Below, piece after piece: positions 5,377-58,044 of a stretch of 64,000 bases of DNA. The position numbers and the translations under genes are program-made. Source of the stretch: Octopus vulgaris. Lineage: Eukaryota. The stretch covers positions 65,286,001-65,350,000 of the forward strand of contig OX597820.1 of NCBI GenBank assembly GCA_951406725.2. Reading direction: 5' to 3'. The notes under the pieces were generated by a model. That model was not told the origin of the DNA and made no database searches. It worked only from the letters and a program-made list of their open reading frames with translations. Each line of letters begins with the position of its first letter. Position 1 is the stretch's first letter.

Positions 5377-5994
5377 TATGAAGAAAAAATAGTCAAGATA
5401 GAAAATGCTGAAATAATTTTATAAAATACATTTCAGTACCGGTTTCAGTCATTGAGACTTTTTCAACTGTAAGTATGGAAAACAATTAAATTTTGGAAAA
5501 ATTAAAAATAAAAAGCTTTTTTAAAAAACTATTTGCAGGGTGTTCAAATACATGTGGCATTTTCTTTGTTACTGCCTGTTTCTCTCTCTCTCTCTCTCTC
5601 TCTCTCTCTCTCTCTCTCTCTCTCTCTCTCTCTCTCTCTCTCTCTCTCAAATAGAAGTGGCATTTTACTTGTTTCTGCCTGTTTAATCTCTTTTGTTTAT
5701 TCTTGTGGGTTAGATCTGGAAACCACAAGAGTAAACAAGAGAGAGAGAGAGAAACAGGCAAAAACAAGGAAAATGCCACTTGTATTTGAACACTATACAA
5801 ATATTATTTTGAAAAAAACAACTTTTCTTTTAATTTTTCCAAAATTTAATTGTTTTCCATACTTACATTTGCAAAAATCTCAATCACTGAAACCGGTACT
5901 GAAATGTATTTTATAAAATTATTTTAGCATTTTCTATCTTGACTTTTTCCTTATATATCAACTCGTGTGTTCCTTTTCAACCTTCTACATATTG
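5377..5994. mobile_element. Fold-back non-autonomous PLE (Neptune-related) remnant with an HHR in each arm
   Basis: Imperfect inverted arms around AGATCT (~5712-5717). HHR at 5434-5469 (-): CAG-TTGAAAA-AGTC tcaat GACT-GAAA-CCGG-TA-CTG. A degenerate copy lies at ~5866-5901 (+). Right-only extension at 5958-5994. Flanked by (TATG)n and (TA)n. Confidence 0.75.
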
Positions 5995-6010
5995 TATATA
6001 TATATATATA

Positions 6011-6188
6011 TCAACAATTGAGGGTAAAATTAATTAATCAATTTCACCAAGTGTTCAGTATGTAAAAGGACCATTTAAGGCGAATTCAAAATATTACATT
6101 ATATAATTAGGGCTTAGTAAAATAAATTACTCTACTAAGTTCAGTATGTGGCAAAGTAATTTATTTTACTAAGCCCTAATTATATAAT
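6011..6188. repeat. Small fold-back element in (TA)n with a perfect 34-bp inverted repeat
   Basis: 6098-6131 is the exact reverse complement of 6155-6188. Homologous to 58433-58775. Confidence 0.8.
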
Positions 6189-6868
6189 ATATATATATAT
6201 ATATATATATATACACACAGTGGTAATACGTGAATACCTGTATCGCTCAAAAACAAAAGTCAAAAATACTTCATTGCCACGGAAAAGTCACAAAATTAAA
6301 ACAAGCATGATAGGAAAGAATTTCAGTGAGCAATATAATCGTCTTATCTCTGCTAAGTCAGCAAAGTAATGCTGGTTAGTTTGATAGCATAATTTCGAAT
6401 TTAGCGCCAAACCTGCCAGCCAACGTATATATGCATACGTTTATACATATATATATTTCATACATAATTACAGGCAGATAAATAAATTCAAACACGCTTC
6501 AAAAGAAATACCCATACATACAGACACAATAAACAGTGATATATTACCAGTAACATACATACATACATTCTCAGATCAACATTTGCACACATGCAGCCTT
6601 ATACTCACATATATACACCCATAGGCGTATGTATTTCTGTATGAAAGCATAGATATGCGGAGAATAAAAATATAACATTAATGGTTTCTCCGTCGCTTTC
6701 GGCGATATGTGATCCAGGTGCATCATTAATTAGCCTAATGATAATTTCTCAATCTAAACATAATCTTCTTGTGAAATAATGAGTGATGGAGTTTTTGAGG
6801 TATCCAGGCCGTTGAGTTACAGGTAGAATCCATTCGACTGGCTTACAGTATTCGTCTATCCAGCCGCA

Positions 6869-7197
6869 TAGTGAGGGCGCGTGGCTTAGTGGTTAGGGCA
6901 TTCGGTTCATGATCGTAAGGTTGTGAGTTCGATTTTCGGCGACGCGTTGTGTCCTTGAGCAAGACACTTTATTTCACGTTGCTCCAGTCCACTCAGCTGG
7001 CAAAAATGAGTTGTACTTGTATTTCAAAGGGTCAGCCTTGTCACTCTCTGTGTCACGCTGATTATCCCCCAGAACTACGTTAAGGGTACACGTGTCTGTG
7101 GAATGCTCAGCCATTTGCACGTTAATTTAACGACCAAGCTGTTCCGTTGATCGTATCAGCTGGGACCCTCGTCGTCGTAACCGGCGGAGTCTTTAAG
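6869..7197 (+). mobile_element. tRNA-derived SINE family C with an 11-bp target-site duplication
   Basis: A box TGGCTTAGTGG, B box GAGTTCGAT, then GTGTCCTTGAGCAAGACACTT. The TSD ATCCAGCCGCA is at 6858-6868 and 7198-7208. Confidence 0.8.
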
Positions 7198-55243: not shown

Positions 55244-57232
55244 CTCCCCTTTACCCCAAGCAAAACCAAGGTAAAATCCAATTTCAGTAAGGAAGAATGG
55301 GAAAACCTACGTGACATACAACTGGATAAAAACCTCACCATCAAAGAAGCGGACAAAGGGAGTGCTGTGGTCCTTATGGACACGGAATTTTATAAACACC
55401 TAGTTTTCTCCATGCTTAACAATAACATTTTCTATGAGGTTATTAACAACTACAAACAGCAAAAAACAATCAGAAACCTCACCACACTCATACGCCAACA
55501 CAGTCAGGGACTCACAGAAAAAGAAAGGGATTATATCACCATTTTCAAATGCAAGCCCAGCCTTTTTTATGGCCTTCCTAAAATCCATAAAAACAAATAC
55601 ATCACCGAAGCCTGCAAACTCTCCACTGACATCCACATCAACATCAAAGCACCGGAGGACCTAAAACTAAGGCCCATCGTGGCTGGGACCTCCTGTGAAA
55701 CACACCGCCTGAGTAACTTCCTAGACATCCTTTTGAAACCTTTCCTTACCCACATCAAAAGTTTCATTAGGGATGATCTGGACATGCTCAAACACCTCCC
55801 GAAAACAGTTAACGAGGAGGCACTCCTGGTATCCTTTGATGTCATCAACCTCTACACCAACATTCCACATGAGTATGGTATAGAGGCAATTGACTTCTGG
55901 CTAGAAAAACACCCAGAGACATTCCCTGACCGCATTAACAAGTCTTTTATTACAGAATCTCTTAAGTTCATTCTGACAAACAATTTTTTTCTCTTCGACG
56001 ACACACACTACCGTCAAAAATGTGGCATTGCGATGGGTACCAAGGCTGCACCAGTCCTTGCGAACCTCATAATGGGTTACTTCGAACTGTCACTCTATGA
56101 AATATCAAGCCAGAAAGTTGGACATGTTTTCCACACCTACCTAATGGAAAACTGGAAAAGGTATTTAGATGATTGTTTCATCATATGGAAAGAACCTTAT
56201 GAAAAACTCCTGGAATTCAAAACCATACTAAACAACATACATCCCAACATCCAATTCACTATGGAATTAAGCAAACATCATCTCCCATTCCTTGATCTCC
56301 TAATTATAAAAACACCTAAGAACCAAATCATAACAGACATCTACCACAAACCTACAGACTCACAACAATACCTCCTCTTTAGTTCATGCCACCCAAAACA
56401 CACCAAGACAAATATCCCTTTCAATTTAGCTAAAAGGGTATGCACCAATGTCTCGGATCCAAAAACACGAGAAATACGCCTTCAAGACCTCAAAAAAACA
56501 CTATTACAACGTCAATATCCCTCCACCCTTATAGAGTATGGAATAAAACGCGCCAAAGAACTAGACAACACTACACTGAAAACCACCCAACCTAACACCA
56601 CACACAACCTCAAAATACTTCCATACATTTCCACCCACAACCCCAAAAATATCGAAGCATACACCACAATCATACAAAACCTCAGTCTACTGTCAACAGA
56701 CCCAAAAATGAAAAACATTATAAATACACACAAAATCCTCAAATGCAAAAGGCAACACAAATCTTTAAAAAAACTCTTGACAAATGCCAAACTTCACACA
56801 CCACATCCACCCCCAACAGTAAAAAAATGTGCACGCTCAAACTGTGGTACCTGCCCCTTTCTACTTGAAGGCTCTGAATTTACCTTCAAACAAGGTACGA
56901 AGTTTAAAATCAAGACTAACTTCTCCTGTTCCTCCGAGAACCTTATCTACGTTCTCACATGCGCTGGTTGCCAACATAATTATGTTGGACAAACGAGTCT
57001 CCCGTTACGTAAACGAGTAACGGTGCATAAAGAACAAATAAATCTCCCGGAATACCGACAAATTCCACTGAGTGACCACTTAGACTCATGTGCTAAAGAC
57101 TTAAACCCCAAATTCTATATATTCCCCTTCTACCAATGTAAAGACGGGATCACCACACAAGAGAGAATTAACAAGGAGAATCTCTTTATTGAAAAATTCC
57201 AAACACAACTTAATATGCAAACTCCTCGTTGA
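55244..57232 (+). CDS. PLE reverse transcriptase + Cys linker + GIY-YIG endonuclease (5'-truncated, uninterrupted frame)
   Basis: RT motifs KEADKG, FYGLPKIHK, LRPIV, SFDVINLYTNI, GIAMGT..APVLANL, RYLDD, LPFLD and YHKPT. Linker CARSNCGTC is Neptune-like. Endonuclease: LIYVLTCAGCQHNYVGQT..R..H..E..LN. Confidence 0.92.
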   Translation, partial: LPFTPSKTKVKSNFSKEEWENLRDIQLDKNLTIKEADKGSAVVLMDTEFYKHLVFSMLNNNIFYEVINNYKQQKTIRNLTTLIRQHSQGLTEKERDYITIFKCKPSLFYGLPKIHKNKYITEACKLSTDIHINIKAPEDLKLRPIVAGTSCETHRLSNFLDILLKPFLTHIKSFIRDDLDMLKHLPKTVNEEALLVSFDVINLYTNIPHEYGIEAIDFWLEKHPETFPDRINKSFITESLKFILTNNFFLFDDTHYRQKCGIAMGTKAAPVLANLIMGYFELSLYEISSQKVGHVFHTYLMENWKRYLDDCFIIWKEPYEKLLEFKTILNNIHPNIQFTMELSKHHLPFLDLLIIKTPKNQIITDIYHKPTDSQQYLLFSSCHPKHTKTNIPFNLAKRVCTNVSDPKTREIRLQDLKKTLLQRQYPSTLIEYGIKRAKELDNTTLKTTQPNTTHNLKILPYISTHNPKNIEAYTTIIQNLSLLSTDPKMKNIINTHKILKCKRQHKSLKKLLTNAKLHTPHPPPTVKKCARSNCGTCPFLLEGSEFTFKQGTKFKIKTNFSCSSENLIYVLTCAGCQHNYVGQTSLPLRKRVTVHKEQINLPEYRQIPLSDHLDSCAKDLNPKFYIFPFYQCKDGITTQERINKENLFIEKFQTQLNMQTPR

Positions 57233-57864
57233 TCAAACTTCCTTTCTCTACCTCACTCTTCATGGATGGACTAACACAAATATATAAAGATACCATGCAT
57301 TCATCACTTCAAGCTAAAACTTATATTCTTTAAATATCATTTTTACTATTGTTGTTATTACTATCATTTTTATTATAAATGATATGACAATTTGAAATGC
57401 AATTGTCTATGCAGATTTATATTATTAGAAAATAATATAAATAAAGTGTTAAAATCTGAAAGTTAAGTTAACAAGCAATTATGTAAAAAAGATAATGCAA
57501 ATGAAGCTAAAATGATAGTTTTATAATTTGGGTTTTATTGAAGAACTCAAAAGAGTTGTCTCCCCTTACTCACAACACAGGAACTGAAGAACCAGGACCA
57601 CAATTACTACTACTTCCTGTCCTGCAACATGCTGAATTTAACAACACAACACATCACATGCTCTTAATCCCTTTGGATCTTAACACCTCAAGGTAATTTT
57701 TTGGTAAACAACCATAAAACTCAAGATACACAACGAACTCACAATGTATCGGAGAACTTATTTTTCAATTTTTGTACATTTTTATCATTATTCTTTTACA
57801 AAAAACAATGCAATTTTCTTTTTTTCCCCTTTCTAATTTTTAAAAAAACTTCTTAAAACATAAA

Positions 57865-57905
57865 TATTCTTGACAAGTCATACAATGACGAAAACCGGTT
57901 GAATA
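57865..57905 (+). ncRNA. Variant minimal hammerhead (U3-A8) in the PLE 3' region; mirror copy at 53281-53321 (-)
   Basis: TATTC-TTGACAA-GTCA tacaa TGAC-GAAA-ACCGGTT-GAATA. Confidence 0.7.
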
Positions 57906-58044
57906 AATATATATTTATATATTTTATCATTTTCTCATTTTATTAAAATTTTCTTTCATTTGAGCATTCTGCATTTTTAAAAAAATTTTTCCTTACTTAT
58001 CATTTCTCCACGTGCGGTCAACACAACCCCACCATTTATTGATC

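Follow-up and report, generated by a model that had tools for sequence, protein, structure and literature searches.

A 64,000-bp stretch of the Octopus vulgaris genome (contig OX597820.1; C7:65286001-65350000, hereafter the window) contains several fold-back insertions in which one arm runs a fixed distance beyond the other. We propose that these are insertions of three coding families of Penelope-like elements (PLEs) and of hammerhead-bearing repeats that borrow their enzymes, with two coupled starts of the reverse transcriptase (RT) in each event, a reading to which we assign a probability of about 0.65. The one-arm extensions are real and family-wide: their short and long ends are fixed and recur genome-wide in the sampled loci, with a tail spacing that is specific to each family and lies between 30 and 94 nt across families. 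The geometry itself – the published PLE 'tail' together with an inverted copy – is established knowledge. Canonical PLEs with an endonuclease (EN+ PLEs) carry an inverted 5'-truncated copy and a 30-40-bp tail (PMC8557442 Fig. 2; PMC3846280), and both PMC8557442 and PMC11167929 treat the way in which PLEs form these structures as an unsettled question. New here are the near-strict pairing of ends in counted insertions, the presence of the footprint in two families of retrozyme-like repeats, an 87-94-nt tail, and a pseudo-long terminal repeat (pLTR) that resembles a short interspersed element (SINE).

Fold-backs were located by self-comparison of the window and direct reading. A preliminary description had listed four, and all four extensions are present at, or a few bases from, where it had placed them. 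The lengths of 47 nt for the Neptune-type element and 34 nt for the 'HHR-SINE' (hammerhead ribozyme SINE) hold; the array extension measures 46 nt, and the 37 nt given for the 5.4-kb element includes TA-rich bases common to the flank, its diagnostic part being 30 nt. The overall range of 34-48 nt was too narrow, with fold-backs at 6011-6188 and 58428-58783 having extensions of ~87 nt. The components of the four elements, and of the family E fold-back that had been overlooked, are as follows.

53190-55243, minus strand: inverted arm of the Neptune-type PLE, ending at the short site
55244-57997, plus strand: Neptune-type sense arm, 5'-truncated, with RT (PF00078), CX4CX2C linker, GIY-YIG and 3' pLTR
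57868-57905, plus strand: hammerhead-like motif, U3-A8 variant with one extra A (manual reading)
57998-58044, plus strand: Neptune-type tail, 47 nt
58045-58433 (other side 53035-53189): (TA)n target flank of the Neptune-type element
28329-29703, minus strand: retrozyme-like 360-bp tandem array, 3.8 units
29664-29634, 29304-29274, 28944-28914 and 28584-28554, minus strand: type I hammerhead motifs, one per array unit
28329-28374, minus strand: array tail, 46 nt (+/-3, common TA), long end at 28329
29704-29842, plus strand: inverted short arm of the array, matching to 28375
28182-28328 (other side 29843-29898): (TA)n target flank of the array
5380-5716, minus strand: inverted arm (short end) of the second Neptune-type family (5.4-kb element)
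5466-5437, minus strand: hammerhead-like motif in that arm
5717-5989, plus strand: 3' end of the second Neptune-type family, including the 30-nt diagnostic tail at 5960-5989
12488-12825, minus strand: Poseidon-type pLTR copy ('HHR-SINE') with tail at 12488-12521 (34 nt), hammerhead at 12617-12582 and a (TTA)n expansion
12821-13067, plus strand: Poseidon-type pLTR short arm, with A/B-box head near 12821-12900 and hammerhead at 12973-13008
6011-6188: family E fold-back, 87-nt tail at 6011-6097, short end at 6188

Searches covered the 2.8-Gb genome, and samples for the pairing of ends were drawn with body-only probes, that is, without selection for the tail. They comprised the first 100 of 703 body-probe matches for the Neptune-type element, the first 100 of 907 matches (52 loci) for the array, all 14 matches of one rare variant for the 5.4-kb family, and the first 30 of 3,602 matches plus 30 body-only best hits for the Poseidon family; for family E, junction patterns were scanned on C1:1-85.8 Mb. 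Tail-containing queries (30 loci each) revealed inverted arms that end at fixed positions, but they favour long ends and were therefore kept out of the pairing counts. Pairs were curated by hand and counted only where both outer ends were visible and canonical, which set aside L240/241 (outer end off the locus), L231 (arm end occupied by a different insertion), L121, L196, L218 and L290 (one non-canonical end), L148, L305 and L309/310 (later duplications) and the single-armed copies, 20 further single-armed Neptune loci among them.

One long and one short end were present in 21/21 Neptune-type pairs, 27/28 array pairs, 29/30 Poseidon pairs and 28/29 family E pairs; relative to an independent 50:50 choice, the one-sided binomial P is 5e-7 for Neptune, 1e-7 for the array and 6e-8 for family E. 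The family E sites, 35 short and 74 long, form 28 divergent long/short pairs, one long/long pair and no short/short pair, with a single convergent neighbour in the scanned region. Opposite-strand Neptune neighbours are divergent in 22/22 cases among those listed. Three repeat families served as controls (837 kb of non-redundant loci plus the window): one gave 8 divergent versus 9 convergent neighbours in 214 matches, and the other two had no opposite-strand neighbours in 88 and 36 matches. The 5.4-kb sample of 14 holds ten short singles, two long singles, the long/short pair of the window and one short/short pair, and five more long/short pairs come from the tail-biased set. A PLE RT/EN mechanism with two priming points had been suggested for the window before, and the one-long-one-short pairing supports it; offsets that were broad or absent, the pattern named in advance as contrary to it, were not seen in the samples.

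That the tail is almost never present twice, or absent, in a pair argues for coupled twin priming. The extent of the arms does so too. We compared 24 Neptune junctions, 19 from positional loci and 5 from the tail-biased set: in 11 of them the arm with the short end extends >50 nt more in the 5' direction than its partner, in 5 the arm with the long end does so, and in 8 the two differ by no more than 15 nt. The 11 longer short-end arms argue against a simple fold-back, which can neither make that arm exceed the long-end arm nor add a tail to a cDNA begun at the short site. A related alternative is a single priming site followed by nuclease resolution, in which long cDNAs (or a self-primed cDNA) are trimmed at one end, back to the short site, by the PLE nuclease. 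Trimming would likewise leave one tail per insertion, the tail has been ascribed to EN-mediated resolution (PMC8557442) and head-to-head inversions to self-priming (PMC3846280), and the eight junctions with equal arm extents, some with palindromic centres, would suit such a process. RT nevertheless starts at both sites in vitro (PMC11167929), and the short ends of Poseidon copies, although spread over positions -25 to -57, directly adjoin the target-site duplication (TSD); we consider trimming unlikely.

Coupled twin priming might instead take place on two separate RNA molecules, one per subunit. Arm extents that mostly differ would fit this, as would a palindrome at L034:1213-1735 that pairs a family-E-like left arm with a right arm of the 360-bp family. 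However, that left arm finely interleaves sequence of the two families, perhaps through an error of assembly or a hybrid insertion from two RNAs, and the arms of a locus carry locus-private variants in common and end together in 8/24. Arm distance within versus between loci is 1.1 versus 3.3% for Neptune (n=20) and 1.9 versus 6.9% for the array (n=30). We regard priming on two RNAs as distinctly unlikely.

Both RT start points are internal to the RNA, because tandem copies read beyond the long end, into the beginning of the ORF (open reading frame) or into the next monomer, and because the predicted hammerhead cut of the array lies 225 nt upstream; priming at the RNA end, as first suggested, does not agree with this. 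In the proposed mechanism, the GIY-YIG nuclease would make a staggered double-strand break, its two 3'-OH ends would prime at the long and the short site respectively, probably on a single RNA held by a dimer, and the two cDNAs would join at their 3' ends, often via short overlaps, each templating the second strand of the other. For the retrozyme-like repeats, the template would be a circular RNA or an uncleaved multimeric one, and the Poseidon pLTR would also yield a short RNA polymerase III (Pol III)-type transcript behaving like a SINE. A Poseidon protein has been reported to cut and extend both strands in vitro, with RT starting at two internal sites that bound the tail, and is predicted to be dimeric (PMC11167929). 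More tentatively, and at somewhat less than even odds, a dimeric PLE particle would always use both RNA-encoded start sites, one per cut strand, with their spacing set by the RNA; the palindrome would be diagnostic, retrozyme circles would be copied through the ribozyme junction, and SINE-like copies would be born in the Poseidon pLTR.

The 53-58-kb element has the order of an EN+ PLE, with RT (E = 7e-8) followed by a C-terminal GIY-YIG (E = 2e-4; 22.1 bits, slightly below the 22.6 cut-off) in which the C,C,H,H residues are visible. A CX4CX2C linker precedes GIY-YIG, conforming to the Neptune clade motif CX2-5CxxC, which is also found in Nematis (PMC8557442). We assign the element to the Neptune type on this linker and its target, clade names here being motif-based after PMC8557442. 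The two arms correspond as far as 53190/57997, and tandem copies read through the long end into the beginning of the ORF. The hammerhead-like motif, a variant described in PMC4209133, is called neither by Rfam nor by the motif scan; its predicted cut lies 144 nt before the long end, and five arm starts, from 3 loci, coincide with it at -143 to -145, hinting at cleavage there in vivo. The final 172 nt of the Neptune pLTR occur at L282:371-1407 as four mini-palindromes in tandem, with (TA)n between them, an arrangement that looks like a nascent hammerhead satellite.

The 5.4-kb element is the 3' end of a second Neptune-type family. Its 3' end is collinear with a PLE ORF, as in EN+ PLEs: ORF pieces 37-54% identical to the Neptune-type protein of the window lie upstream in L067, L080, L085, L066 and L254, and in L253 an RT piece (55% identical) sits on the inverted arm.

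The 'HHR-SINE', whose arms match to 12522/13067, begins ~40 nt after the stop codon of a Poseidon-type RT/EN ORF (L289, L306, L098, L307). A near-complete copy (L316) has an inverted short pLTR, a pLTR, the ORF and a pLTR with tail, and continues past the long end into the ORF start. The order pLTR-ORF-pLTR, an RT (RVT_1, E = 6e-8) with C-terminal EN and no linker, a tail overlapping the ORF start and a TSD are those of Penelope/Poseidon elements, although a Pfam search of the ORF missed its EN; we identify the 'HHR-SINE', from this context, as the pLTR of a predicted Poseidon-type PLE. A further single copy lies at 42285-42575 in the window. The four elements are therefore not unrelated, as had been supposed, since both the 5.4-kb element and the 'SINE' sit directly downstream of PLE ORFs.

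An independent tRNA-derived SINE was considered and rejected, because the whole unit is the Poseidon pLTR and 38/40 best ORF matches run on into the 'SINE' head (a ranking that favours longer matches). The head does have the fixed 5' end of such SINEs: 45 arm starts lie 2-16 nt upstream of the A box versus 4 that reach the ORF (84 loci). By box consensus, an A box is present in 24/34 heads and a B box in 20/34, and the Poseidon pLTR appears to begin with Pol III-like boxes where short copies start. Rfam found neither hammerhead nor tRNA in the SINE-like head, folding gave no tRNA, and ARAGORN reported 0 genes in 6 loci.

The Poseidon family also differs in its targets. A TSD of at least 8 nt flanks 30/38 Poseidon palindromes, versus 2.7 (maximum 6) in shuffled pairings, and is mostly 11-15 bp, although the palindrome in the window has no such duplication. 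Arm ends lie beside a microsatellite in 80/84 Neptune-type cases, and in 85/104 and 11/16 in other families, versus 2/90 for Poseidon (counts that include overlapping loci), so that the short arm blends into the target repeat in the former, as first described, and not in the SINE-like family, and a community 'centred on microsatellites' does not describe the whole set. In 34/51 Poseidon long ends, two or more flanking nucleotides are identical to the continuing RNA sequence, versus an 11% background, which may reflect microhomology or a cut preference; at short ends the match is 1.3 nt, whereas permuted data give 0.55 (n=15; a value as high as 1.3 arises in 0.7% of permutations). Matches of 1-3 nt thus occur at both ends in this family, and not only at the internal site as had been proposed.

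These data also bear on the model of the preliminary description, in which one Neptune RT/EN mobilises all four elements by priming at the RNA 3' end and internally. In its favour, the array and the Neptune-type element both insert into (TA)n, have offsets of 44-47 nt and possess some short motifs in common close to each site. However, the 5.4-kb and Poseidon elements encode ORFs of their own, which contradicts the model for these two; Poseidon insertions go to different targets, and the long end lies within the RNA. With at least three coding families (two Neptune-type at 43-55% identity, one Poseidon-type) that differ in targets and tail lengths, a single enzyme is very improbable.

The array has the features of non-LTR retrozymes, tandem non-coding units of 150-450 bp each with a type I hammerhead core: its period is 360 bp and a core is present in 4/4 units, one with a mismatch. 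No collinear ORF was found upstream at array loci. We consider it likely, from the footprint, that the array is mobilised in trans by PLE enzymes, in keeping with the earlier proposal, and the footprint is insertion-level support for PLE mobilisation of retrozymes. Array sequence runs on beyond the long end into a further unit, and the arms traverse the predicted hammerhead cut, often spanning several units; by manual count, 3 of ~65 arm starts lie within 5 nt of the cut, with ~2 expected, and there is no pile-up. Arms that cross the predicted cut fit a circular or uncleaved RNA template. Unit distance is 0.6-2.5% within a locus versus 3.9-8.4% between loci, with mostly private changes (14 loci), which fits a single template unit, although a rolling circle and a homogeneous multimer predict it alike. 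In the L057 and L130 arrays a few variants recur with a period of 3 or 2 units, hinting at multimeric templates or later tandem growth. Beside the array, a degraded ORF remnant at 27180-28181 (minus strand) gave no Pfam match but appears to resemble the PLE thumb/EN region. A hammerhead-like motif near 28140-28175 (plus strand) recurs in five other loci.

Family E is a second retrozyme-like family, with a 557-bp tandem unit elsewhere, a hammerhead-like core and an 87-94-nt tail. A second fold-back with a long extension belongs to family G, of which few relatives were seen:

58428-58783: family G fold-back, ~87-nt one-arm extension

The sequence at the short end of this fold-back, CCCTAATTTATAAT, is similar to the family E short end. 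Family D (11255-11460 and 16208-16401, minus strand) is a repeat that carries a hammerhead and has a constant 3' end abutting (TA)n; no inverted neighbour was found in 17 matches, and it is a possible single-ended exception. Two degraded RT-bearing remnants at 16406-17964 and 36464-37944, resembling long interspersed elements (LINEs), are 74% alike.

Rearrangement of DNA after insertion, fold-backs from long-read assembly, or the terminal inverted repeats of DNA transposons could in principle produce palindromes. Later inverted duplications that include flank do occur at L143/148, L304/305 and L309/310, and the window has a symmetric fold-back like that of a miniature inverted-repeat transposable element (MITE) at 35051-35560, with 163-bp inverted repeats, TA flanks and no extension, which serves as a contrast case. 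The insertions studied here have ends unequal by a fixed offset, inner junctions that vary, TSDs around the whole palindrome and RT/EN ORFs, and their geometry is absent in the control repeats. A DNA transposon or MITE was rejected on the unequal ends and variable junctions, which also answer the concern that terminal inverted repeat signatures might be found, and we regard this whole group of explanations as barely credible.

Several observations weigh against coupled twin priming by PLE enzymes. Exceptions to the pairing are the short/short Poseidon L283, 5.4-kb L262 and array L143 (where the flanks are also inverted), and the long/long family E L314; the 5.4-kb family is thinly supported, its 14 positional loci giving one long/short pair and one short/short pair (L262). 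Single-armed copies are common and have an excess of short ends: among singles, short ends outnumber long ~2:1 or more in four families and the reverse holds in family E, which is partly probe-dependent. Poseidon arms are hardly closer within a locus than between loci (7.6 versus 8.6%, n=28; an older family), and gene conversion, or the use of two RNAs transcribed from a single source locus, could account for the likeness of arms within a locus. Alone among the four elements, the array has neither ORF linkage nor extended sequence in common with any coding family, and a sequence comparison of the 3' regions of all families gave no extended homology. Rfam and ARAGORN called neither hammerheads nor tRNA; Rfam found no hammerhead or tRNA in the array stretch, nor among the 150 of 258 rows listed for the window, which were microsatellite noise. 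The motif scan detected cores in all 4 array units, both 'SINE' arms and one 5.4-kb element arm, with 8 strict matches versus 0-3 in ten local shuffles. No common structure emerged when four tail regions, the Poseidon head and one hammerhead were folded (z of -0.5 to -1.8).

A countable footprint is a direct test of the PLE insertion mechanism and of the mobiliser of animal retrozymes, and any hammerhead satellite can be screened for it. If the reading is true, a one-long-one-short palindrome assigns non-coding satellites and SINEs to PLE enzymes; for annotators, an abundant 'SINE', with 3,602 exact matches to one 27-mer in the genome, is a PLE pLTR. In the literature searched, mostly open-access and excluding Repbase and supplements, we found nothing on counted pairing, a footprint on retrozymes, long tails or a Pol III-headed pLTR.

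In LINE-1 twin priming, two target 3'-OH groups act as primers and leave an inverted junction with microhomology. There the cDNAs copy different parts of the RNA, whereas here both copy the same 3' region from sites 30-94 nt apart. Canonical EN+ PLEs are alike in their head-to-head inverted arm, partial tandems, one-end tail overlapping the ORF start, TSD near 10 bp, pLTR hammerhead and, for Neptune-type elements, microsatellite bias. Their tail is described as optional or often one-ended, whereas here the pairing is counted as near-strict one-long-one-short, and tails of 44-47 and 87-94 nt exceed the canonical 30-40 bp. Anolis Poseidon PAc (PMC11167929) is similar in having two internal RT starts that bound the tail, cutting of both strands and an AT-rich target; its authors saw neither a dependence of the start site on the strand nor homology to the primer, whereas here the sites are paired per event and the ends have 1-3-nt matches or a TAT cut preference. 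A mollusc repeat annotation (PMC13282606) has no 'hammerhead' or 'retrozyme' in the text available. Non-LTR retrozymes (PMC7229834; bioRxiv 10.64898/2026.07.22.740005), for which PLEs have been proposed as mobilisers, likewise have tandem non-coding units with type I hammerheads, and 'tail' occurs 0 times in the main texts of these two papers. Their argument rests on hammerheads in common, co-occurrence and pLTR homology, whereas the arrays here bear the PLE footprint and insert as multimers; at 557 bp, the family E unit exceeds the 150-450 bp of PMC7229834 and is within the 51-972 bp of the preprint. The SINE-like hammerhead repeats of Schistosoma (PMC6765202) also combine a Pol III-type promoter and a hammerhead in a short repeat, but, unlike them, the octopus unit is the pLTR belonging to a coding Poseidon-type element, occurs mostly as head-to-head pairs or singles and not in tandem, and has a PLE tail.

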